Virus record (IMG/VR): IMGVR_UViG_3300033143_001114
Location: 1-55,774 of that record
Origin: a virus
Lineage: Duplodnaviria > Caudoviricetes
DNA length: 55,774 bases
Strand: one strand, 5' to 3'
Shown here: piece by piece, positions 30,574 through 55,431 of the stretch
Position numbering within the stretch: position 1 is the stretch's first letter
Layout: the number at the start of each line of letters is the position of its first letter
Made by a program: the position numbers and the translations under genes
Notes under the pieces: generated by a model
What the model saw: the letters and a program-made list of their open reading frames with translations, nothing else
What the model was told of the DNA's origin: nothing
Databases searched by the model: none

Positions 30574-31227
30574 ATGAAGCTGATCACAGAAATAAACGAA
30601 AATACAGAATTACTTACTGAAGGTAAGGGTAAAGATAAAAAATATTTCGTTGAGGGTATATTCCTTCAAGGTGGTATTAAAAACCGTAATGGACGTGAAT
30701 ATCCAGTAGAAACACTTATGAAAGAAGTGTCTCGCTACAATGCTCAATATGTAAAGCAGAATAGAGCGTTTGGTGAATTGGGTCATCCTGAAGGTCCTTC
30801 AATCAACTTAGATCGTGTATCACATATGATCACCAGTTTGAAGAAGGAAGGTAATGACTTTGTTGGTCGTGCCAAGGTTATGGACACACCATACGGTAGA
30901 GTAGTAAAGAATTTCATTGATGAAGGTGCTAAGTTAGGTATATCCTCACGTGGGATGGGTAGCATTAAAAAGGAAGGTAATAGGAATGTTGTTCAAGATG
31001 ACTTTTATCTTGCAACTGCAGGAGACATTGTTGCTGACCCTTCAGCCCCAAGCGCCTTTTTAAATGGTATTATGGAAGGAAAAGAATGGATCATGGAAAG
31101 CGGCGTCCTGATTGAAAAGGATGTTGAAGATTACAAAAAGCGTATAAATGCAGCAAGTAGATCTGTTTCAAGGGAAACTGAGAAAGAGATGCTGGCGGTA
31201 TTTGAGAGTTTCATAAATAAACTCTAA
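30574..31227 (+). CDS. gp21: Prohead protease gp21
   Basis: MKLITE, NRNGR-x-YP, GELGHP, GISSRGMGS, D-x-VADPS. Confidence 0.95.
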   Translation: MKLITEINENTELLTEGKGKDKKYFVEGIFLQGGIKNRNGREYPVETLMKEVSRYNAQYVKQNRAFGELGHPEGPSINLDRVSHMITSLKKEGNDFVGRAKVMDTPYGRVVKNFIDEGAKLGISSRGMGSIKKEGNRNVVQDDFYLATAGDIVADPSAPSAFLNGIMEGKEWIMESGVLIEKDVEDYKKRINAASRSVSRETEKEMLAVFESFINKL

Positions 31228-44072: not shown

Positions 44073-45275
44073 ATGGCTAGATCAAAATATGAAAAGATTA
44101 GCGTTTCAGACTTCCTAATTTTAGTTAAGAAGCATTACCCTAATCAGTCAGAATTGAAGCGAACAGAATTACTTGATATTGCAAGTAAAGAACTGGTCGC
44201 TGTCCCAGAAGCTATTTGGGAAAGTAAAGTAGGCCGAGGCATTTACAATGTAGATACTTCAAACGTTGTGGAGTTTGTAGGTCCTATTCAAACTGCTCCC
44301 GTTAAGACACCACTTGCTGAGGCGGTTGCGCTTTCACCAAGACGTGGTGTAGAAGCAGTTTCAAGCGCGGGACAGAATTATGTCCCACCAAAAGATATTA
44401 CATATGTGCCTTGGGGTATTCACGCAGAAGCAGTGAAGATTATCAAGTCAGGTATCTTTTTCCCTACTTACATTACAGGCTTATCAGGTAATGGTAAGAC
44501 AATGGGACTTGAGCAGGCTTGCTCAAAAACAAAACGCGAATTTTTCCGTGTCAACTTTACCACTGAAACGGATGAAGATGATTTGATGGGTGGTTTCCGT
44601 TTGATAGAAGGTGATACTGTATTCAGTTACGGTCCAGTATCCGAGGCAATGTTGCGTGGTGCTGTATTGGTACTAGATGAAATTGACTTGGGTGACCCAG
44701 CTAAGATCATGTGCTTGCAGAGTGTGCTTGAAGGTAAAGGTTACTTTATCAAAAAGACAAATGAGTTTATAACTCCTCAACCAGGCTTTCAGATTTTTGC
44801 AACTGGTAACACAAAAGGTAAAGGTTCAGATGGAGCCTTCATGGCTACCAACGTTTTGAACGAGGCTTTCCTTGATAGATTTTCATCAACCCTTGAACAG
44901 GATTATCCTTCACAAGCGGTTGAACGTAAAATCCTAAGCAAGGTGATTGATACTTTGCCTAACAGCAAACATGATCCTGAGAAGGTTGGTGACTTTATTG
45001 AAAACCTCGTCAAGTGGGGTTCAATCATCCGTCAGACATTTGACCAAGGTGCGGTTGACGAGATTATTTCAACACGCCGTTTGGTTCACACTGTCAAGGG
45101 TTATGCAATTTTTGGAAGTATCAAAAAAGCAATTGACGGTGCCGTTGCCAGATTTGATGAAGACACTGTATTGTCATTCACGGATTTGTACAGCAAGATA
45201 GATGCTGGCATGGAAGATGAAATTGAGGCTGATTCAACGGTACTAAATGTACCATCAGAAGATTTCACGCTTTAA
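44073..45275 (+). CDS. MoxR/CobS-like AAA+ ATPase
   Basis: GLSGNGKT, LVLDEID, ATGNTKG, NEAFLDRF, STRRLV. Confidence 0.88.
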   Translation: MARSKYEKISVSDFLILVKKHYPNQSELKRTELLDIASKELVAVPEAIWESKVGRGIYNVDTSNVVEFVGPIQTAPVKTPLAEAVALSPRRGVEAVSSAGQNYVPPKDITYVPWGIHAEAVKIIKSGIFFPTYITGLSGNGKTMGLEQACSKTKREFFRVNFTTETDEDDLMGGFRLIEGDTVFSYGPVSEAMLRGAVLVLDEIDLGDPAKIMCLQSVLEGKGYFIKKTNEFITPQPGFQIFATGNTKGKGSDGAFMATNVLNEAFLDRFSSTLEQDYPSQAVERKILSKVIDTLPNSKHDPEKVGDFIENLVKWGSIIRQTFDQGAVDEIISTRRLVHTVKGYAIFGSIKKAIDGAVARFDEDTVLSFTDLYSKIDAGMEDEIEADSTVLNVPSEDFTL

Positions 45276-47864: not shown

Positions 47865-48392
47865 ATGTCGATAAATAAAGACCAGGAAGAGTTCACAGCA
47901 GAAAATCAAATTCCTGTTGAAGAGACACCCGAGTTACACCCAGATAACTTCAAAGTAAAATCTCCTGAAATGAATTTGTTTGATTATATGCAATTAGCTG
48001 GCCGCACAAATAAAACATTCCCAGGCGGTGTTCAATTATCACAAGAGCAAATGGAAGTTTTACATGGCTCTATGGGTATGGTAACAGAAGCGGGTGAGTT
48101 GATGGACGCCATTAAGAAGAACTTTATTTATGGCGCACCACTTGATAAGGTGAACATGCAAGAAGAACTTGGCGACATCGCATGGTACTGGATATTGATT
48201 TGTAGATTTTATAGTTGGGATCCATACGAGATTTTGAAAATGAATATTGATAAACTGCAACTTCGTTTCCCTAATGCTTTTACAGAAGAAGATGCATTGA
48301 ATAGGGACTTGAATAAAGAGCGCGCACTTTTAGAAGAAAATGATCAAAAAACCTCCGATGGATATTGCGCTCACCCTAGAACTGAAGACTAA
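47865..48392 (+). CDS. mazG: MazG-like NTP pyrophosphohydrolase
   Basis: EAGELMD...EELGD-x-x-WY, N-x-x-KL-x-x-RFP. Confidence 0.85.
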   Translation: MSINKDQEEFTAENQIPVEETPELHPDNFKVKSPEMNLFDYMQLAGRTNKTFPGGVQLSQEQMEVLHGSMGMVTEAGELMDAIKKNFIYGAPLDKVNMQEELGDIAWYWILICRFYSWDPYEILKMNIDKLQLRFPNAFTEEDALNRDLNKERALLEENDQKTSDGYCAHPRTED

Positions 48393-48424
48393 TTTGTGAT
48401 ATAATACAACAGGTGAGGTGAACA

Positions 48425-48643
48425 ATGAACGCGAATATTTATGTAGTGTTTAAAGATGGTGTATATAATGCTCCTTGCGGCAGCTTGAGAAGCGTTGTGA
48501 CAAAGGTAAAAGACTTGGGCAACCTAGGCGATGTGCTGGTTGATACAGCGGCTATCCGTCAAGATGTGAAAGTAGGTAAAACATTTTCAATCAAAGGTTC
48601 CAATGGTGCTTTGATTGAAGTCCGTAAAGACACATTAGTTTAA
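48425..48643 (+). CDS. Hypothetical protein
   Basis: GAGGTG RBS; TGTGATATAAT extended -10 at about 48395-48405. Confidence 0.55.
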   Translation: MNANIYVVFKDGVYNAPCGSLRSVVTKVKDLGNLGDVLVDTAAIRQDVKVGKTFSIKGSNGALIEVRKDTLV

Positions 48644-48657
48644 GTGGGGATTATATA

Positions 48658-49239
48658 ATGTATAAAATTTCAAAAGACTTTTCATTATGTTATGGTCATC
48701 GTGTATGGACTCAAGAACTCAAAGAAGAATTTTGTCAAGATGGTGATTCAAGCTGTAAATGTAAACACCTCCATGGGCATGAAGGATTAATTAGAGTTGC
48801 ACTTGAGGCCAACCTATTAACAAAAGGTATGGTAACAGATTTCAAACATCTTGGTTGGGTTAAAAACTTCCTTGATGATAATTTAGATCATAAGTTTATC
48901 GTTGATAGAAATGATCCATTATTTTACAACATCATAGGTCTTGAAAAAGATATCCTCGATGATGCTTTAGATAGAGTATATCTAGATAACAATCTTGTAG
49001 GCTGGAAGATTTTACCATTACCTAATGCAAATTCAATAATGGCAGAATTGTTTGAGAGCTTTTTCATAGTTGACTTCACACCAACCTCAGAGAATCTTGC
49101 AGAATGGTTATATCATATTGTAATGCATAAGATGGTATCGTTTTACCCAGGAGTAAGAGTTGAGAGTTTAATGTGGCAAGAGACGCCAAAATCGAAAGCC
49201 ACTTATACTACACACAAACCTGGAGATGGTATATTTTGA
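48658..49239 (+). CDS. queD: 6-carboxy-5,6,7,8-tetrahydropterin synthase
   Basis: GHR, C-x-HLHGH, DF, LDH, PTSENLA, ET. Confidence 0.9.
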   Translation: MYKISKDFSLCYGHRVWTQELKEEFCQDGDSSCKCKHLHGHEGLIRVALEANLLTKGMVTDFKHLGWVKNFLDDNLDHKFIVDRNDPLFYNIIGLEKDILDDALDRVYLDNNLVGWKILPLPNANSIMAELFESFFIVDFTPTSENLAEWLYHIVMHKMVSFYPGVRVESLMWQETPKSKATYTTHKPGDGIF

Positions 49240-50111
49240 AATTAAAATACTCTGAAATATTTTACAGTATGCAGGGCGAGGGATACCATATAGGTGTCCC
49301 TTCCGTGTTCTTACGAACTTTCGCGTGTAACTTTGAGTGTAAAGGTTTTGGTCAAACTAAACCTTACTTACCTGAAGAAGATATGCCGCATAACAAGTTC
49401 GATATTACAACGATAAATAATATTAACGAATTACCTGTGTTTAATGTTGGTTGTGATTCATCTGCTTCGTGGGCAAAGAAGTATGCACACTTGGCTCCAA
49501 TGGACACTATGGCTGACCTTGCTAAGAAGATTGCAGCATTAACTCCAATGCAAGATGAATGGACCGTTAGAGAAACAGGGCATTTTATACATCTTGTAGT
49601 TACAGGTGGAGAGCCACTATTAAAAGGTAATCAAAAGAAATTTATTGAATTGTTAGAACAGCCAGAGTTTAGATACTTACGAGATATTACATTTGAAACA
49701 AATGGAACACAACAATTAACTGACGAATTTAGAACGTGGCTTTATAGGCAACAAGGTTTGAGAGTAACGTGGTCAATATCACCTAAGCTTTCAATATCAG
49801 GTGAGAAATATGGAGCAGCTATAAATCCTAGGGCAGTGCTTTCAATACAACAATCAATGAAACAAAACGATATAATTTATTTTAAATTTGTTGTAAGAGA
49901 AAGAGATAATATAAAAGAGATTATACATGCATTAGGTGATTATGAAGATGTGGGTATTCATACCAACATTGTCTATATAATGCCAGAGGGAGCAACACAA
50001 GAAGGTTTATCATTAACAGAAACCTCTGTTGCAGAACTTGCGCTTGAATGTGGTCTACGTTATTCACCAAGACTGCATGTAAATATATTTGGGAATAAAT
50101 GGGGAACTTAG
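49236..50111 (+). CDS. queE: 7-carboxy-7-deazaguanine synthase (radical SAM)
   Basis: EIFYS-x-QGEG, CNFEC...GCDS, TGGEP, FETNGT, SPK; TTG start 49236 after GGAG. Confidence 0.9.
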   Translation: MKLKYSEIFYSMQGEGYHIGVPSVFLRTFACNFECKGFGQTKPYLPEEDMPHNKFDITTINNINELPVFNVGCDSSASWAKKYAHLAPMDTMADLAKKIAALTPMQDEWTVRETGHFIHLVVTGGEPLLKGNQKKFIELLEQPEFRYLRDITFETNGTQQLTDEFRTWLYRQQGLRVTWSISPKLSISGEKYGAAINPRAVLSIQQSMKQNDIIYFKFVVRERDNIKEIIHALGDYEDVGIHTNIVYIMPEGATQEGLSLTETSVAELALECGLRYSPRLHVNIFGNKWGT

Positions 50112-50112
50112 T

Positions 50113-50787
50113 ATGCCGTTAGATAAGAGATTTAGAATAGATGATCATATTTATTTTGTTCATGAATATGGATTGGACATGGACGGAAACGAAATACACG
50201 TCTACGGTGATGAAAGATATGTGAATGAAGAACAAACTGAACCTGGTGTAGAGTATTTAATGTCAGCTAGGTTTATTAAAAATATGAATTTGATTATGGG
50301 AAAAACCGGGAATGAGAATATATTAATTCATCTTAAATCCTGTGGAGGAATGTGGGAAGAAGGAATGGCAATGTATGATATAATTAAAACGTGTCCAAAT
50401 TATATCACAGGATTAAATTACACTCACGCTCGTTCTATGACTTCATTGGTTTTCCTTGCTTGTGATAAACGAGTAATGATGCCACACTCTACTTTTATGT
50501 TTCATGAAGGAACTTTCGCAATAAATGGAACAGTCAAACAAGCCAGAGTAGAAATGAAAGAGTTGGAGAGAACGTCTAAAGAGATGGTAGATGTTTATGT
50601 AGATATTTTGAAAAACTCTGAGCATGGAAAATATAGAGATAAATCTGTGAAGTGGATCAGAAATTGGGTATCAAAACAAATGAATGATAAAGAAGAAGTC
50701 TACTTGACCGCTCAAGAAGCGGTTGATGTGGGATTTGCTCATGAGATTTTTGATGGTGATTGGAGTAAAGTTTCAACAAGAAAATAG
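50113..50787 (+). CDS. ClpP-like serine protease
   Basis: S-x-GG, ARSM (catalytic Ser), FMFH (His), YLTAQEAV-x-x-GF. Confidence 0.75.
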   Translation: MPLDKRFRIDDHIYFVHEYGLDMDGNEIHVYGDERYVNEEQTEPGVEYLMSARFIKNMNLIMGKTGNENILIHLKSCGGMWEEGMAMYDIIKTCPNYITGLNYTHARSMTSLVFLACDKRVMMPHSTFMFHEGTFAINGTVKQARVEMKELERTSKEMVDVYVDILKNSEHGKYRDKSVKWIRNWVSKQMNDKEEVYLTAQEAVDVGFAHEIFDGDWSKVSTRK

Positions 50788-50808
50788 AAGTATCAATTAT
50801 TATAATAA

Positions 50809-50819
50809 TGTGCTATAAT
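50809..50819 (+). promoter_or_regulatory. Extended -10 promoter for the folE operon
   Basis: TGTGCTATAAT. Confidence 0.5.
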
Positions 50820-50842
50820 ATGTAGAACAATGGGAGTGTTGA

Positions 50843-51478
50843 ATGATAGATAAATGGGTTAGTAATAAAAATAAAGTTGTGTCAAGTGGGGATATGGTTC
50901 AAATAGAACAAAATACAGAAGCTGCCGTCCAACAACTATTAGAAGCACTTTGTATAGATACTGAAAACGATCACAATACCAAAGACACTGCAAAGCGCGT
51001 CGCAAAAATGTTTCTTCATGAAACGTTTAAAGGTCGTTATGAAGCAATGCCCAAGGTTACAGCTTTCCCTAACGCAGGAAATTATGATCAAATTTACTTG
51101 ACGGGACCTATAACAATCAGGTCAACATGCGCCCACCACTTTCAAAACATTATAGGTAAATGTTGGATTGGTATTTACCCAGGTAAAAAAGTTATTGGCT
51201 TGAGTAAATTTAATAGGCTTGTTGATTGGATTGCATCCCGTCCTCAAATTCAAGAAGAAATGACGGTACAAATAGCCGACCTTATTGAAGAGCAAACACA
51301 AGCACAAGGAATAGCTGTTATTGTTAAAGCAGAACATATGTGTCTAACTCATCGTGGCTTTAAAGAACATGAGAGTGATATGACAACCTCAGTAATGCGA
51401 GGAACGTTTTTGAAGAACGTACATATGAAACAGGAATTTTTATCATTATTATCAGGAATGAAAGGGTTTAATTCATGA
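50843..51478 (+). CDS. folE: GTP cyclohydrolase I
   Basis: STCAHH, GLSKFNR, RPQIQE, HMC-x-x-x-RG. Confidence 0.95.
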   Translation: MIDKWVSNKNKVVSSGDMVQIEQNTEAAVQQLLEALCIDTENDHNTKDTAKRVAKMFLHETFKGRYEAMPKVTAFPNAGNYDQIYLTGPITIRSTCAHHFQNIIGKCWIGIYPGKKVIGLSKFNRLVDWIASRPQIQEEMTVQIADLIEEQTQAQGIAVIVKAEHMCLTHRGFKEHESDMTTSVMRGTFLKNVHMKQEFLSLLSGMKGFNS

Positions 51479-52728
51479 AGGCGCAATTCTTACCAGCTAT
51501 ATCAACGGCAACTACAGGCTACCTAGCTGCAAACTCAGATGAAGATTTTCTAAACCATTCAGACAATATCACAAAGTCTTTCAGGTTTTTCAACCAAGAC
51601 AGTGATGCATATTTTCATCATCCGTTTGTTTTAATATCAGCTTCCCACTTGTTTAAGAAAACTGAAAACATCCGAGAGCATCTTGGTATCGACGACAAAC
51701 AATTTATTTTTATTGACTCAGGTGGTTACTCACTCGCCTCAGGAGCAATCAAAGAGAAAGATTGGAATGATCAGCTTGCATATAAATGGTCTAATAACAA
51801 CGGAAACGTTTTCCCAATACTTGATAGACCATTAATTCCTAATTGTGATTATGATAAACACTTGGACTTGTCATTTAAGTCTGCTGAATACTACGCAACA
51901 GAACGTCCAGGCGATGATAAGAAATTAATATTGAATGTTGTACAAGGTAGAAATACAAAAGAACTGAGTACATGGATCGATAAAATGGCTCAAATTCCTT
52001 TAGATGGTTGGGCACACGGTGGTCACCGAGGTCATATGTCAAACATCGTTGGAGTCATACTTGAATTAATAAATAAAGGCTTAATGGAAAACTCAAAGAT
52101 TCATCATATCTTTGGTGTATCATCATGCGCCTCAATGGTTTACTTTGCGGTTATTCAAGATGAATTACAGAAGCTTGGATTCAAAACACAATTAACATAT
52201 GATAGTTCTTACTTCCAAAGGTCATTTGCTTTTGGTAACTGGTTCCTTTATAAGAAGTTCGACGGCATGGTTAATATCAGACTTTCAAATAGGTATGATT
52301 GGTCACACGTTCCTAAAGGTACAAAGATCCCCTGTGAATGTCCTTTGTGTTCACCAGTTACAGACGTACATGAATTTTTTGAGAACTCTATGACTTTTTA
52401 CATGTTAGGCGCAATGCATAATCTCTACCAGATGCTTTCATATAAAAGATCAATTGAGAACTTGTTACACTTCGGCAGCGTACAACCAGCAACAGATAAA
52501 GAAGGTAATGTTTATAACGTAGACCCGTTTTTACAAACTGCATTACCCGCTAAGATGTGGAGAAACATTTGTGCAATCAAAGAAGCATTTGCTAATCCTA
52601 AGTCAGGTGCAAGGATTATGAATATGAAATTTGAAGATAGAAATGTTGAAACTCCACCACCAACTTTAAATCAATTCATGCCTGATTATGTAGAAAAAGA
52701 AACAATGTTAGATGAGGATAGAGTGTAA
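51475..52728 (+). CDS. dpdA: TGT-fold transglycosylase, probably DNA-acting DpdA-like
   Basis: IDSGGY, LD-x-P, VVQG, HIFG, YDSS, CECPLC...HN zinc site; located in the que cluster. Confidence 0.72.
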   Translation: MKAQFLPAISTATTGYLAANSDEDFLNHSDNITKSFRFFNQDSDAYFHHPFVLISASHLFKKTENIREHLGIDDKQFIFIDSGGYSLASGAIKEKDWNDQLAYKWSNNNGNVFPILDRPLIPNCDYDKHLDLSFKSAEYYATERPGDDKKLILNVVQGRNTKELSTWIDKMAQIPLDGWAHGGHRGHMSNIVGVILELINKGLMENSKIHHIFGVSSCASMVYFAVIQDELQKLGFKTQLTYDSSYFQRSFAFGNWFLYKKFDGMVNIRLSNRYDWSHVPKGTKIPCECPLCSPVTDVHEFFENSMTFYMLGAMHNLYQMLSYKRSIENLLHFGSVQPATDKEGNVYNVDPFLQTALPAKMWRNICAIKEAFANPKSGARIMNMKFEDRNVETPPPTLNQFMPDYVEKETMLDEDRV

Positions 52729-53219
52729 TGGCACATATGGCCTTTGATTTAGACGGCGTGTTATTATCCGACAATCATGTTGGAACGGATAAAGATGCGG
52801 CTTGTGATTTAACTACTGTTCTGAATTTCAGGATTAGGAACATGCTTAGATTATTTGTTCCTAATAAACGTTATGCTATTATAACAGGTAGACCTAAGCT
52901 TGATGAAACAGAAACTTTGTTTTGGATACACCAAAACTTGAGCGATAATTTACCAATAGATATTTATCATGATCGCCCGTGGATTGAGAACTTTGATATA
53001 GCCAAACATACGTTAGGTGCCGCAAAGTATAAAGCAGAAGTTTTAAATGAAGATACACTTATTGATGTTTATATTGAAAGTGATATAGAACAGGTTAAGT
53101 ATTTGCAAGATAATGTTAGAAATACTTGTTCAATATTACATTTTGAGACATTGGTAGTAAACGCAATAAACAATGAAGTAGAACACCAAAGGAGAATACA
53201 ATGGCAAAAGTCTTTCTAG
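52728..53219 (+). CDS. HAD-superfamily phosphatase
   Basis: FDLDGVL, ITGRP, K, YIESD motifs. Confidence 0.75.
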   Translation: MAHMAFDLDGVLLSDNHVGTDKDAACDLTTVLNFRIRNMLRLFVPNKRYAIITGRPKLDETETLFWIHQNLSDNLPIDIYHDRPWIENFDIAKHTLGAAKYKAEVLNEDTLIDVYIESDIEQVKYLQDNVRNTCSILHFETLVVNAINNEVEHQRRIQWQKSF

Positions 53220-53740
53220 AATATAAAGATTTAAAGAATATTTGCTGTTCAATCACTGATAAGATTAAACGCGAAGAAGAAAAACCTTTTACTGAGATTG
53301 TAGCAGTAACAAGAGGTGGGCTTACAGCGGCACATATTTTTGCAAAGGAATTAAACCTTGATGTAGGTATGTTCCTGCCAAAACCTTATCAGCTTGCACT
53401 TAACAACGATATTACCGAAGACACAAGGCTTTTACTTGTGGAGGATTTGGTTGCTCAAGGCAGAACATATGCTGAAATAAAAGACTTTTTCAGAATGTTC
53501 AATGAGTCAATAACAAACGAAATGACTGCCGAAGGTGTAGAGTACGAAGGCGTCAAGCATATTATTGATTGGGAATTTTGTCCAATCCTAATTGACGATT
53601 CATATGAGCCGAAGGACGAGTTTAAATACTTTGGCTATACTTCTAAAAACTGGGTTGTGTTCCCTTATGAAGACAGCGAGAAAGTTGTGATTGGGGATCG
53701 TGGCTTACATAGAGATGGGAGCGACCAATATGGGAAATGA
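53201..53740 (+). CDS. Purine phosphoribosyltransferase (Gpt-like)
   Basis: IVAVTRGGL, PRPP loop LLVEDLVAQGRT, WVVFPYE. Confidence 0.8.
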   Translation: MAKVFLEYKDLKNICCSITDKIKREEEKPFTEIVAVTRGGLTAAHIFAKELNLDVGMFLPKPYQLALNNDITEDTRLLLVEDLVAQGRTYAEIKDFFRMFNESITNEMTAEGVEYEGVKHIIDWEFCPILIDDSYEPKDEFKYFGYTSKNWVVFPYEDSEKVVIGDRGLHRDGSDQYGK

Positions 53741-54296
53741 AATATGGGAACAAATTAACCACGAACCTTATCCAAAAGAAGTAAAGGATAGAGTATTTGA
53801 ATTTGTTAAGTTTATAAACCTATATAAAACTTGCGGTCCTATTGCAGACTTAGGTTGTGGTAATGGTTTCATCGCAGACGAACTTTCCCGTATGCATAAT
53901 AAATTCAAGTCAATAGATTTGTATGATTACTTCCCAACACACGAATCAATTCAGAAAATTGACCTAAACAATTTTGGCAATACACCAGAACGTAAGTACA
54001 GCACCGTATACCTTTCACATGTGATGGAACATTTAAAAGATCCTGTATATACTTTGAATATTATTAAGAAGGAATTCCTTAATCCTTCACATGGTCGAGT
54101 TATTATTGCCGTTCCTAATGGCGAGTATGACAATGGACATAATCCTTTCGATAAAGAGATTGGTCATATTTCATTGTTTAGTAGATTCAGTATTGAAGAT
54201 AATATGAGGAAGGCAGGCCTTATCCCAAAAATTATAACTGTTAATACATTGGATGCGAACTACCCAGAGATATGGGCCGTAGGAGAATGTCCGTGA
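53730..54296 (+). CDS. Class I SAM-dependent methyltransferase
   Basis: IADLGCGNG, SHVMEHL-x-DP, IAVPN; likely start ATG 53730. Confidence 0.8.
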   Translation: MGNEIWEQINHEPYPKEVKDRVFEFVKFINLYKTCGPIADLGCGNGFIADELSRMHNKFKSIDLYDYFPTHESIQKIDLNNFGNTPERKYSTVYLSHVMEHLKDPVYTLNIIKKEFLNPSHGRVIIAVPNGEYDNGHNPFDKEIGHISLFSRFSIEDNMRKAGLIPKIITVNTLDANYPEIWAVGECP

Positions 54297-55126
54297 TACC
54301 TAAAAGAAAGAAAGTTGCTGTAATGGTTTCAGGTGGCTTAGATAGTTTCATTGCATATGAATATGCTTTAACTGCTTTTGCCGATGAAGAATATACAGAA
54401 GTTATTCCTGTATATGTTCGATATGGTAGCCCTTATCAAGACAAAGAAGATGCTGCTATTGATAAGCTGTTCGGTAATATTAAAAATTTAAAAATCATTA
54501 ATGCTGACCTTGCCACAGAAGATCTTGATAATGTACCAACATTAGAACAACAAGAGATTTATGGTAGGAACTTGTTAATGTTATTTTATGGTGGAGTTGT
54601 GGGTGATGTTATTTGGCTGGCAAGCTTAGAAACTGAAATGAACCCAACGGCAGTTAGAGATAAACACCCAGAGTTTATGCATATGTGTTCTTCAATATTC
54701 TCGTATATATTTAAGAGCAAGCGTTTTGAAACTGTTGTGGAAACACCATTCAAGGACTTTACTAAATCGGATATTGTTCGTATTGCATTGAATGATTTAG
54801 GTATCACAGTGCAAGAGTTGGTGTCTACCTCTACTTGTTACCATGAAGAACACCACAATTGCGGGCAATGTTCTACATGTTTCAAACGTTGGATTGCAAT
54901 GACTAACAATGGAATTGACGAAGAAGATTATGTCACACACCCATATAGAGATAATGAATACGCCCAATGGGTGTGTATGGATATGAGACGTGTAGCAAAC
55001 GCAGGAATTGAAGAACCTCGTTATTCATATAAAAGATTGATCGAAACTCATAATGCTTTAAAGAGAGCAGGCTTTGAAGGAATATTTAAAGCCTATGATA
55101 ATTTAATAATCGACAGTGGGAGTTAA
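54287..55126 (+). CDS. queC: 7-cyano-7-deazaguanine synthase
   Basis: SGGLDS PP-loop, GRN, TCY...CGQC-x-x-C zinc site; AGGAG RBS. Confidence 0.85.
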   Translation: MSVIPKRKKVAVMVSGGLDSFIAYEYALTAFADEEYTEVIPVYVRYGSPYQDKEDAAIDKLFGNIKNLKIINADLATEDLDNVPTLEQQEIYGRNLLMLFYGGVVGDVIWLASLETEMNPTAVRDKHPEFMHMCSSIFSYIFKSKRFETVVETPFKDFTKSDIVRIALNDLGITVQELVSTSTCYHEEHHNCGQCSTCFKRWIAMTNNGIDEEDYVTHPYRDNEYAQWVCMDMRRVANAGIEEPRYSYKRLIETHNALKRAGFEGIFKAYDNLIIDSGS

Positions 55127-55128
55127 TC

Positions 55129-55431
55129 ATGGCATTAGATCAATTCAAAAGAGAAATAAGAGTAGGAGATATTATATCCTACCCTGGTAGACAGTCAAGT
55201 TCTATTTGGAACAATATCGCCGTTGTTAAAAAGCTAAATGTAAACGGTTCATTAGGAGTAACACGCGGCCCTCAATATAGATGGGAAACAAATCAAAACC
55301 TTAGAAACACGACTGTTCATATGACTCAAAGAGCTATCATCCTTAATAAAGAGGATCTAGCAACTGTTAAAGATAATAACATTCAAAACTTACTTCTTAT
55401 GTCAATTGTGTATCTTAATGAAACAAAGTAA
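55129..55431 (+). CDS. Hypothetical protein
   Basis: GGGAG RBS; D-x-x-x-REI-x-VGD start. Confidence 0.5.
   Translation: MALDQFKREIRVGDIISYPGRQSSSIWNNIAVVKKLNVNGSLGVTRGPQYRWETNQNLRNTTVHMTQRAIILNKEDLATVKDNNIQNLLLMSIVYLNETK

Follow-up and report, generated by a model that had tools for sequence, protein, structure and literature searches.

FolE, QueD, QueE and QueC make up the established pathway that produces preQ0 from GTP. In phages 9g, CAjan, nt-1, phiST and CP220 the same base-synthesis genes lie beside a gene for a TGT-superfamily enzyme, and the logic by which such clusters modify DNA with deazaguanines has been described (PMC6884629; PMC10516641). By word count, the term 'phosphoribosyltransferase' is absent from the main text of both papers. 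A methyltransferase is known from phiSM-type phages, where DpdM is described as acting on preQ1 and having a unique fold (PMC10516641). The toyocamycin and tubercidin clusters of Streptomyces are described as employing the same four or three enzymes to take GTP to CDG or preQ0, after which a PRPP-dependent phosphoribosyltransferase (PRTase) acts on the deazaguanine and a phosphatase yields the nucleoside (ToyH/ToyI, TubE). TubE is reported as a CDG-specific PRTase (PMC6112128) and toyocamycin clusters as containing a PRTase and a HAD protein (bioRxiv 10.64898/2026.04.15.718813). The same two activities are described, in the same order of reaction, for PRPP-dependent ribofuranosyltransferases, bipartite enzymes that combine a phosphoribosyltransferase domain with a HAD phosphoribose phosphatase domain (PMC11127046). 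Our comparison of the window with the Streptomyces and bipartite enzymes rests on these descriptions.

The window, the whole stretch of 55,774 nucleotides analysed here, is a fragment of a marine T4-like phage (the record is ∼31% complete). Like the known clusters of FolE-QueD-QueE-QueC and DpdA, its cluster stands in a region of phage replication genes, with a TGT-fold enzyme beside the base-synthesis genes; its addition to the known phage deazaguanine clusters is a module of HAD phosphatase, PRTase and methyltransferase (HAD-PRT-MT). The ORF list places every gene named in the earlier note on the plus strand at the positions reported there, and its coordinates confirm the overlapping starts and stops: FolE and the TGT-fold gene share ATGA, the TGT-fold gene and HAD 1 nt, HAD and the PRTase 19 nt, and the methyltransferase and QueC 25 nt. 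The methyltransferase ORF begins with TTG at 53691; translation more likely starts with the ATG at 53730, in which case the gene overlaps the PRTase by 11 nt. In agreement with the earlier note, QueF was not found in the window; nor were any tRNA genes. Two differences separate the window from the toyocamycin and tubercidin clusters as described: it has a TGT-fold enzyme, and the Pfam scans of the island contain none of the enzymes that would turn the G-type ring into an A-type one (GMP reductase, adenylosuccinate synthetase and lyase). The island is best explained as a 7-deazaguanine cluster of a phage, extended by a ribosylation unit in which, to judge from the protein families, a conserved PRTase and HAD pair probably attaches ribose to the modified guanine. 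The DNA chemistry of this phage may thus exceed the known deazaguanine bases.

Families were assigned by Pfam, PHROGs and NCBIfam searches. QueD, a 6-carboxytetrahydropterin synthase (48658-49239; PF01242, 84.7 bits; phrog_2389, 5e-34), and FolE, GTP cyclohydrolase I (50843-51478; PF01227, 172.4 bits; NF006826, 168.5 bits, which passes the cut-off), were recognized directly. QueE, the radical SAM CDG synthase (49173-50111), matched phrog_2076 (1.2e-50), and its matches to the NCBIfam QueE models were weak, far under the cut-offs. With the GTG start of the ORF list it shares 67 nt with QueD, and the PHROGs alignment starts at residue 23; the real start probably lies later. The QueC-family ATP pyrophosphatase (54272-55126; PF06508, 59.1 bits) shows an SGGLDS motif and a Cys cluster in its translation, scores 44.7 bits against the QueC equivalog TIGR00364 (cut-off 150.3) and falls in a divergent viral clade of the tree. 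Given the established pathway, FolE, QueD, QueE and this divergent QueC would turn GTP into a 7-deazaguanine base: preQ0 itself or one of its precursors, for example ADG or CDG.

The TGT-fold protein (51475-52728) scores 30.9 bits against PF01702 and so passes the cut-off of 26.3, which the proteins of the five reference phages do not. The alignment of its family, A1, retains DSGG, D117, D243-S244 and C287/C289/C292/H315, and its AF2 model (pLDDT 91) finds tRNA TGTs as best PDB matches (E 1e-10). The family is a large viral one, with 515 related IMG/VR loci. The earlier note had suggested placing the protein among the DpdA subfamilies, but it fits none that has been named: membership in DpdA1, DpdA2, DpdA3 or bacterial DpdA could not be detected. 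The hhalign values were 46% for DpdA1 of 9g, 66% for the putative DpdA2 of nt-1, and 0.3% and 5.9% for DpdA3 of phiST and immuto, and a PADLOC scan gave no match of any kind. We assign it to an unnamed viral subfamily of TGT-superfamily base-exchange enzymes. With the catalytic Asp and the Zn-site residues intact, it would swap the base into a polynucleotide, from context most likely phage DNA.

The type I PRTase (53201-53740) scores under the cut-off with PF00156 (23.5 bits; cut-off 26.3) and reaches 34.8 bits with NF006613 (cut-off 138). Its description as Gpt-like is borne out by the family profile, which hhalign matches to E. coli Gpt at 96.7% and to Apt at 89.8%; the best profile matches are E. 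coli Gpt and archaeal purine PRTases (PDB 1vdm and 1a95; best PDB match 1vdm, 6.5e-12), with which it shares the PRPP loop, the ribose-binding Glu-Asp and a W-x-V-F-P-[YW]-E region. The likeness fails at the purine-binding Asp. In the PRPP motif, VEDLVAQGRT, an Ala stands where the N7-contacting residue would be; Ala85 aligns with Asp92 of Gpt and with Asp137 of HGPRT, whose OD2 touches the purine N7 (PMC2228302, Table 2). A conserved C-terminal tail, GDRGLxR...D.YG, is a further difference from Gpt. None of the HAD-linked PRTases has the N7 Asp; the phage proteins carry Ala, Leu, Arg or Gly, and among the fusions the motif is readable in 39, with Ser, Gly, Asn or Trp at this position and in no case Asp. 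Since E. coli adenine PRTase also has Ala at this position, the Ala alone is no pointer to a 7-deazapurine. All three phage groups with ∼100% G replacement (CP220, phiST and immuto) have a PRTase that retains the Asp.

The HAD gene (52728-53219) had no match in Pfam, PHROGs or NCBIfam and is assigned, from its motifs, fold and partnership with the PRTase, as a HAD phosphatase without a large cap domain. The motifs DxDG, T53, K102 and E117-S118 are invariant in 10 sequences (the residue after S118, usually D, is E in two). The PDB matches listed for its AF2 model (pLDDT 84) are weak, with E values of at least 6e-3, and, except for 2c4k in a low-probability row, either belong by name to the HAD phosphatase superfamily or appear related to it. 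In 36 of the 39 viral loci that carry it, the gene adjoins a PRTase, and 69 of the 74 longer homologues are PRTase-HAD fusions. Adjacency and fusion demonstrate the coupling of the two proteins and contradict the proposal that HAD edits the dGTP pool; judged by these arrangements, HAD is an obligate partner of the PRTase rather than a separate editor, and it most likely dephosphorylates the PRTase product. As in the bipartite ribofuranosyltransferases, its homologues are mostly fused to a PRTase and the purine-N7 Asp is absent, whereas in the window the two would form one two-step unit encoded by separate overlapping genes, with HAD first, amid those of a nucleobase pathway.

A co-occurrence test set beforehand supported the assignment of the accessory genes to the cluster: HAD-PRT-(MT)-QueC was found with a TGT-fold gene in distant viral contigs. 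Ten non-redundant loci, the window included, have an Ala-type PRTase; all 10 have QueC, nine a TGT-fold gene (eight by BLAST, L087 by Pfam), eight HAD and seven FolE (both by BLAST). Gene order is constant across them, with TGT-fold proteins just 28-43% identical. A two-pattern scan of 185,579 species genomes listed 14 relatives, of which one is of the Ala type, again in the order TGT-HAD-PRT-QueC. The other 13 lie near no Que gene; six have readable PRPP motifs, all with Asp, and seven are unreadable. Because the Ala-type PRTase always has the TGT or FolE gene on one side and QueC on the other, gene position points to the cluster's own deazaguanine as the most likely acceptor. Action of the PRTase on a deazaguanine base, as proposed in the earlier note, stays the leading reading, shorn of dGTP editing by MazG and HAD. 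Transfer of a phosphoribosyl group from PRPP and subsequent removal of the 5'-phosphate, chemistry suggested by the families, would give a ribosyl derivative of that base, a product we put forward tentatively and with slightly less than even confidence. Ribose might be added to N9 of the free base to give a nucleoside, in the manner of ToyH/ToyI in the toyocamycin pathway, or to a group of the base already in DNA to give a ribosylated hypermodified base. Against ribosylation it counts that, to our knowledge, preQ0 within DNA presents no evident hydroxyl for the reaction, and that a free nucleoside would leave the benefit to the phage without explanation.

The methyltransferase (53730-54296; Methyltransf_23, PF13489, 52.7 bits, and an Atlas model) is an ordinary class I Rossmann SAM enzyme; the window thus resembles phiSM-type phages in having a methyltransferase within a deazaguanine cluster, but the protein is unlike DpdM. 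It adjoins the PRTase or QueC in three other lineages: L085 (PRT-MT-QueC, in the same place as in the window), L159 (MT-QueC) and L185 (HAD-PRT-MT). One fusion, P0104, is MT-PRT-HAD. As an optional part of the module it would methylate the ribosylated product, and the further-modified base envisaged in the earlier note may arise in this way.

The PRT-HAD(-MT) proteins might instead ribosylate an unrelated acceptor (a glycan, another small molecule or another DNA base) and be in the cluster merely through the packing of auxiliary early genes. Because neither a Que nor a TGT gene lies within 6 kb of 26 of the 36 viral PRTase-HAD pairs, the pair is not specific to deazaguanine clusters and its acceptor may differ. 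Pairs outside Que clusters adjoin a NAD-dependent epimerase, a lysin or an HNH gene, three PRTase-HAD fusions include glycosyltransferase domains, and glycans are described as substrates of the known bipartite enzymes (PMC11127046); the fusions inspected on two bacterial plasmids have hypothetical genes around them and no glycan cluster. We nevertheless consider this unlikely. The Ala-type PRTase sits in a Que cluster at all 10 loci with overlapping starts and stops, its order fixed despite the divergence of the TGT-fold proteins, and the single copy from cellular genome bins is arranged likewise. The sole complete genome examined with a Leu-type pair, G008 (399.8 kb), also has, at other positions, genes for FolE, a TGT of the A1 type and a QueC-like protein.

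Base exchange is expected to free guanine stoichiometrically, one per exchange, and a PRTase with a profile nearest Gpt and archaeal purine PRTases could convert it to GMP, removing a competitor and refilling GTP for FolE. Asp-retaining PRTases occur in every ∼100% replacement group, where such salvage would matter most, but the window enzyme lacks this Asp, its subtype tracks QueC no less closely than TGT, and the coupled phosphatase would reverse the gain. Dephosphorylation of the PRTase product leads away from dNTP as well as from GMP salvage, which also weighs against a pre-replicative route in which a PRTase-made deazaguanine ribonucleotide is phosphorylated, reduced and polymerised while MazG and HAD clear dGTP and dGMP. 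TubE is a precedent for a PRTase that builds a deazaguanine nucleotide (PMC6112128), the clusters of the complete-replacement phages phiST and immuto combine a PRTase with MazG-like and kinase-like genes, as does that of Brevundimonas MaInes with RNR and a dNMP kinase, and in the window a MazG-like NTP pyrophosphohydrolase lies immediately upstream (47865-48392; PF03819, 35.2 bits; phrog_229, 5e-39). However, the PRTase of the MazG and kinase phages is a different one, with the Asp retained and without a HAD partner; the TGT-fold gene in nine of 10 module loci would be superfluous to a purely pre-replicative route; and no MazG match was found beside the cluster in the related loci compared. 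MazG, which the earlier note had included in the route, is a neighbour without a conserved link to the cluster. Both salvage and the pre-replicative route appear improbable, and less likely here than ribosylation.

Three plus-strand genes had been omitted from the earlier note. The ORF of 72 aa (48425-48643) gave nothing in Pfam, PHROGs, NCBIfam or PADLOC and that of 100 aa (55129-55431) nothing in Pfam, NCBIfam or PADLOC; neither has a homologue in the related loci. The third, between QueE and FolE, encodes a putative ClpP-like serine protease (50089-50787; PF00574, 68.8 bits), and in L086 a ClpP-like gene lies two genes upstream of TGT-HAD-PRT-QueC.

Modification of phage DNA with 7-deazaguanine is known; what is new here is an unnamed subfamily of TGT-fold enzymes and a conserved module of a HAD phosphatase, a phosphoribosyltransferase (PRTase) and, at some loci, a methyltransferase, found inside the clusters of uncultured, mostly T4-like phages. 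Neither the PRTase nor the phosphatase is in the described parts list of phage 7-deazaguanine DNA systems. The contig of 55,774 bases is estimated to be 31% complete, with a G+C content of ∼ 36%, and all genes of its deazaguanine region (∼ 47865–55126) lie on the + strand. Genes for a sliding clamp (gp45-like), clamp-loader subunits (gp44- and gp62-like) and RegA are found directly upstream of the region, and a 794-aa protein has its closest relatives in marine cyanomyophages (32–34% identity); we therefore regard the window as part of a distant T4-like phage. An AAA_5 (MoxR/CbbQ-like) ATPase gene (44073–45275) is located just upstream of the sliding clamp gene. No tRNA genes were found in the window, and a search of sequencing runs returned no RNA run and one contig-only entry (0.09 share).

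All genes named in an earlier note, made from the sequence alone, were found where it had placed them and are supported by family matches (Pfam, PHROGs, NCBIfam; the HAD gene by motifs and a model), and the start/stop overlaps running from FolE to QueC are as described there. The list was incomplete in omitting a 72-aa ORF in the MazG/QueD interval and a gene for a ClpP-like serine protease (50089–50787, + strand), which is flanked by QueE and FolE within the cluster. FolE, QueD and QueC score above Pfam/PHROG cut-offs and QueE matches phrog_2076 (1.2e-50); all four enzyme families of the preQ0 pathway are thus present. The listed QueE ORF, with a GTG start, overlaps QueD by 67 nt (49173–49239), and because family alignments start at residue 23 the true start is probably downstream. 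A ClpP-like gene also occurs in another viral locus (L086), two genes upstream of TGT-HAD-PRTase-QueC. If ORF 30574–31227 is the gp21-type prohead protease, as we assume by gene order alone, then the ClpP-like protein probably does not serve as head protease. None of the defence-system models in PADLOC matched the accessory genes.

The TGT-fold protein (51475–52728) scores 30.9 bits against PF01702 (cut-off 26.3). An AF2 model (pLDDT 91) has tRNA-guanine transglycosylases as its best PDB matches (E 1e-10, TM ∼ 0.55); a phmmer search against PDB sequences gave nothing meaningful. The Pfam score, the barrel-fold matches and the conserved catalytic Asp residues place it in the TGT superfamily. 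In an alignment of 43 sequences DSGG, D81, D117, D243, C287, C289, C292 and H315 are invariant or nearly so, which reads as the catalytic and zinc-site pattern (C-x-C-xx-C...H) of TGT enzymes; the correspondence to the Z. mobilis TGT numbering is our assumption. Bacterial Tgt (TIGR00430, 19.4 bits, cut-off 306.75) and archaeal TgtA (TIGR00432, 20.6 bits, cut-off 350) were both rejected as identities.

The earlier note had proposed to place the enzyme among the DpdA subfamilies, the named phage DNA transglycosylases. It is no detectable member of DpdA1–3 or of bacterial DpdA by hhalign and PADLOC, where it matched none of the models. The hhalign probabilities were 46% for DpdA1 of 9g, 66% for ORF390 of nt-1 (DpdA2 solely by its position between FolE and QueC), 0.3% for the DpdA3 gp042 of phiST and 5.9% for the DpdA3 of immuto; between themselves, the two DpdA3 proteins give a BLASTP match of 1e-6. 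DpdA4 of HVTV-1 was compared through a search with the profile of the window's family (A1) only. Since neither the Pfam TGT model nor the A1 profile recovered a DpdA in 9g, nt-1, CP220, HVTV-1 or phiST, the placement relies on hhalign against single sequences. The closest protein from a cultured phage is a TGT-domain protein of Vibrio phage GR11A (hhalign 98.4%), which has no match in nt-1.

Among 5.8 billion proteins searched, 52 were relatives of the TGT-fold protein, all unnamed or generically named. A single-sequence search of IMG/VR found nothing; with the family alignment that it required, 515 of 598 candidate stretches encode a relative. Among the best 80 of these 515, FolE is encoded at 48 loci, RegA at 32, QueC at 23, QueE at 17 and QueD at 16, and by these counts the type is a common enzyme of the deazaguanine clusters of T4-like phages. 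We conclude, at the level of sequence comparison, that the protein belongs to a distinct branch of the TGT/DpdA superfamily that has no name as yet. The context of replication genes and Que genes favours DNA rather than tRNA as its target, and so abundant a viral TGT subfamily outside DpdA1–4 widens the set of candidate DNA transglycosylases.

QueC of the window (54272–55126) scores 44.7 bits against the QueC equivalog TIGR00364, far from the cut-off of 150.3, and falls in a viral clade separated from the E. coli type (support 100/99). It retains SGGxDS and the Cys cluster, spaced C-x7-C-xx-C-xx-C, whereas the spacing in PMC13329287 is C-x8. In PADLOC it matches the QueC model and, weakly, QatC only. 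The divergent type is common to T4-like clusters that have no PRTase, so the divergence is not tied to the PRTase; a separate clade of PRTase-linked QueCs was not rejected in the QueC tree (p-AU 0.42). At one viral locus (L173:5210–6390) a QueC near that of the window (4.8e-76) directly precedes or overlaps a HAD-containing ORF, with no PRTase detected, and this could be a QueC-HAD arrangement. Two T4-like clusters (L004:7607–13077 and L009:8592–12805) carry QueD, QueE, FolE and the same TGT type and no QueC. In its stead they have several large family-less ORFs and an alcohol-dehydrogenase-like protein, placed before a DUF7220 gene that follows the cluster as in the window. They may make another deazaguanine end product.

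The PRTase (53201–53740) overlaps the HAD gene (52728–53219). It falls short of the Pfam cut-off; in hhalign the profile of its family aligns with E. coli Gpt at 96.7%, and the purine PRTase 1vdm matches at 6.5e-12. A search of PDB sequences with a further profile (A3) gave nothing meaningful. E81, D82, G87, R88, T89 and R38-G39-G40 are invariant in 20 sequences, and the PRPP-binding loop and ribose-binding acidic pair of 6-oxopurine PRTases are present. At the position where these enzymes have the Asp that contacts N7 of the purine (Asp137 in human HGPRT; Table 2, PMC2228302), the window's family has an invariant alanine (Ala85). Its PRPP motif reads E-D-L-V-A-Q-G-R-T, against D-D-L-V-D-T-G-G-T in E. 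coli Gpt and E-D-I-I-D-S-G-N-T in Hpt; Ala also occupies this position in the adenine PRTase of E. coli. As far as the motif can tell, the change from Asp to Ala would rule out classical 6-oxopurine catalysis, without identifying the substrate. The group further shares a conserved C-terminal tail, GDRGLxR...D.YG, absent from Gpt.

The HAD gene had no match in any library, Pfam included. Ten homologues share its motifs (DxDG, T53, K102 and E117-S118) without variation, except that the D after S118 in motif IV is E in two of the ten. An AF2 model (pLDDT 84) gave only weak PDB matches (E ≥ 6e-3), and those listed are HAD-superfamily members or apparent relatives (T4 PNKP phosphatase, GmhB, lipin), except for the low-probability 2c4k. 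Motifs I–IV and the fold together identify a HAD-superfamily protein. A search with the HAD alignment found 41 viral loci, 39 of them new, and a PRTase adjoins the HAD gene in 36 of the 39. Ten of these 36 pairs lie in a Que/TGT context; the other 26 have no Que or TGT gene within 6 kb. Among 74 HAD-containing proteins longer than 287 aa, 69 are fusions of an N-terminal PRTase to a C-terminal HAD domain, recognised by the phage profiles; one (P0104) additionally has a methyltransferase domain and three carry glycosyltransferase domains. Such Rosetta-stone evidence, with the adjacency, indicates that phosphatase and PRTase work together, the simplest case being that the phosphatase takes the PRTase product as its substrate. 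This coupling takes the place of the earlier note's suggestion that HAD edits the dGTP pool. Only one viral fusion is trusted (L197); a second candidate (L168) was set aside, as its frame changes at the junction relative to a near-twin (L166) and it may be an artefact. Two bacterial plasmid loci with fusions had no informative neighbours.

The residue at the N7-contacting position follows the phosphatase partner. It is Ala in the window's group, Leu in the larger viral group outside Que clusters, Arg in the L197 fusion and Gly at another viral locus (L185), all with a HAD partner; the 39 fusions with a readable motif have Ser (21), Gly (15), Asn (2) or Trp (1) and never Asp. PRTases of phiST, CP220, immuto, Brevundimonas phage MaInes and Synechococcus phage BUCT-ZZ01, as well as cellular PRTases, have Asp and no HAD partner. 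The Leu-type group (L165–L196, e.g. L171:5532–6396) consists of viral contigs in which HAD directly follows the PRTase and Que genes are absent within 6 kb; the pair often runs divergently to a gene for an NAD-dependent epimerase/dehydratase.

Most clusters with the window's TGT type lack the module: the best 80 of the 515 TGT loci contain a PRTase once (L040) and HAD five times, and the methyltransferase, MazG and ClpP-like genes in none. Searching instead with the PRTase family alignment gave 30 viral loci. In the ten closest, QueC directly follows the PRTase or PRTase-methyltransferase in every case, HAD directly precedes the PRTase in seven, and the TGT-fold gene is present in eight by profile and in a ninth (L087) by Pfam. 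When duplicates were removed and L040 and the window added, the resulting ten loci all contained PRTase and QueC, with TGT in nine (eight by BLAST, L087 by Pfam), HAD in eight and FolE in seven. The recurrence of HAD-PRTase-(methyltransferase)-QueC with the TGT-fold gene bears out the view that the accessory genes belong to the cluster. MazG, which the same note had included, has no counterpart in any related locus and drops out.

A larger viral genome (G001, 146.8 kb, 54% complete) has HAD-PRTase-QueC with a radical SAM gene; TGT and FolE were not found in it, but so partial a genome gives no argument for a module independent of TGT. A motif-based scan of cellular genomes, one per species over 185,579 species, gave 14 PRTase relatives. 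The sole one with the window's active-site type sits in TGT-HAD-PRTase-QueC, probably on a phage contig that ended up in a MAG. Que genes are absent from the surroundings of the remaining 13; their PRPP motif is readable in six, all Asp-retaining, and unreadable in seven. A tblastn search of cultured phages with the window PRTase gave no match.

The methyltransferase (53730–54296, likely start ATG at 53730) is a class I enzyme. DpdM, which has a fold of its own and a preQ1 substrate that requires QueF, was rejected as its identity for this reason and since QueF, as the earlier note had seen, was not found in this 31%-complete record. The methyltransferase turns up in three more lineages: between PRTase and QueC in L085, ahead of QueC in L159 (where a TGT-fold gene is present and PRTase and HAD are absent), and after HAD-PRTase in L185. 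L185 (4563–9943) encodes in a row TGT-fold, HAD, PRTase, class I methyltransferase, GT1 glycosyltransferase and GDP-mannose-dehydratase-like epimerase. QueC is absent nearby, and the row of genes suggests that sugar chemistry is linked to a TGT system.

The module resembles the PRPP-dependent ribofuranosyltransferases, for which Kelly et al. 2022 is reportedly the primary paper. In these, as described in passages of PMC11127046, a phosphoribosyltransferase domain moves ribofuranose-5-phosphate onto an acceptor, and the phosphate is then taken off by a phosphoribose phosphatase domain of the HAD family. A PRTase joined to a HAD partner is likewise what the overlap, the adjacency and the fusions show here; the likeness is one of description, and no solved structure of a bipartite ribofuranosyltransferase matched in our PDB searches. 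Toyocamycin biosynthesis is described as using a PRTase and a HAD protein for these two reactions on a nucleobase (bioRxiv 10.64898/2026.04.15.718813), and passages of PMC6112128 present TubE as an experimentally shown CDG-specific PRTase. ToyH and TubE offer, by their published descriptions, a deazapurine PRTase precedent. In the main texts searched, no paper connects PRPP or a PRTase with the deazaguanine DNA of phages, and the word 'phosphoribosyltransferase' is absent from the main texts of PMC10516641 and PMC6884629.

We infer a pathway in which FolE, QueD, QueE and QueC would make a 7-deazaguanine base such as ADG or preQ0, the TGT-fold enzyme would swap it for guanine in a polynucleotide, PRTase and HAD would use PRPP to ribofuranosylate an acceptor, and the methyltransferase would decorate the ribosylated product. 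Because the Ala-type PRTase keeps a fixed place inside the cluster, the deazaguanine itself is the likeliest acceptor. That 26 PRTase-HAD pairs lie outside any Que context makes an acceptor unrelated to deazaguanine a possibility; against this, the sole complete genome examined that has such a pair (G008, 399.8 kb) encodes FolE, an A1-type TGT (4.7e-37) and a QueC-like protein elsewhere. The coupling of the PRTase to a phosphatase and its lack of the N7-contacting Asp weigh against salvage of guanine. The same coupling, together with the retained TGT-fold gene, speaks against a pre-replicative route through dNTPs. As product of the ribosylation pathway, our data would fit either a free nucleoside or a base that is ribosylated within DNA. 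In its fullest form, phage DNA would contain an undescribed hypermodified base, a TGT-inserted 7-deazaguanine that is ribofuranosylated by PRTase and HAD and, in some lineages, methylated; we advance this only as a speculative and rather improbable proposal. If true, it would be the first PRPP-dependent glycosylation of DNA, and the role of the PRTase in the phages with complete guanine replacement (CP220, phiST, immuto) would need re-examination. From the module one would expect an undescribed ribosyl (and methyl) derivative, not so far sought in phage DNA or infected cells.

Passages of PMC10516641 report CP220, phiST and immuto as completely modified. An Asp-retaining purine-PRTase-like gene is present in all three phage groups reported to have ∼ 100% of G replaced (dDG, dADG, fdPreQ1): gp064 of phiST (L083:280–708), CPT_0182 of CP220 (L124:7870–8283) and gp60 of immuto_2-6A (L140:8980–9375). 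The PRTase profile matched in phiST and CP220 and gave no match in 9g, nt-1 or HVTV-1. Relatives of gp064 occur in 34 cultured-phage records, from phages of Campylobacter (15), Cellulophaga (5), Vibrio (5, partial matches under folE), Flavobacterium (immuto, 4), Brevundimonas (2) and Synechococcus (1) and from unnamed gut phages (2). Gene order is QueD, QueE, PRTase, FolE, NTP pyrophosphohydrolase, DpdA, formyltransferase, thymidylate kinase, QueF in immuto; PRTase, one ORF, radical SAM gene in CP220; QueE, PRTase, one ORF, QueD, FolE in BUCT-ZZ01; and RNR, dNMP kinase, FolE, PRTase in MaInes. In phiST the PRTase lies beside RNR, and MazG-like and kinase-like genes share the cluster with it in both immuto and phiST. 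The claim that all modification is post-replicative rests, in the passages of PMC10516641 concerned, on DpdA3 enzymes without demonstrable activity. The Asp-type PRTase is a handle on this question, through either guanine removal and recycling or a nucleotide route, and this side result may matter more widely. Some phage FolE genes are ∼ 100 aa longer, as in Vibrio phage 1.207.B (L139:5800–6723) and at L087:5199–6161. In five Vibrio phage records the added N-terminal stretch of FolE shows a weak similarity to the C-terminal portion of the PRTase of phiST (E ∼ 1e-3), and three of the five were looked up as Queuovirinae relatives.
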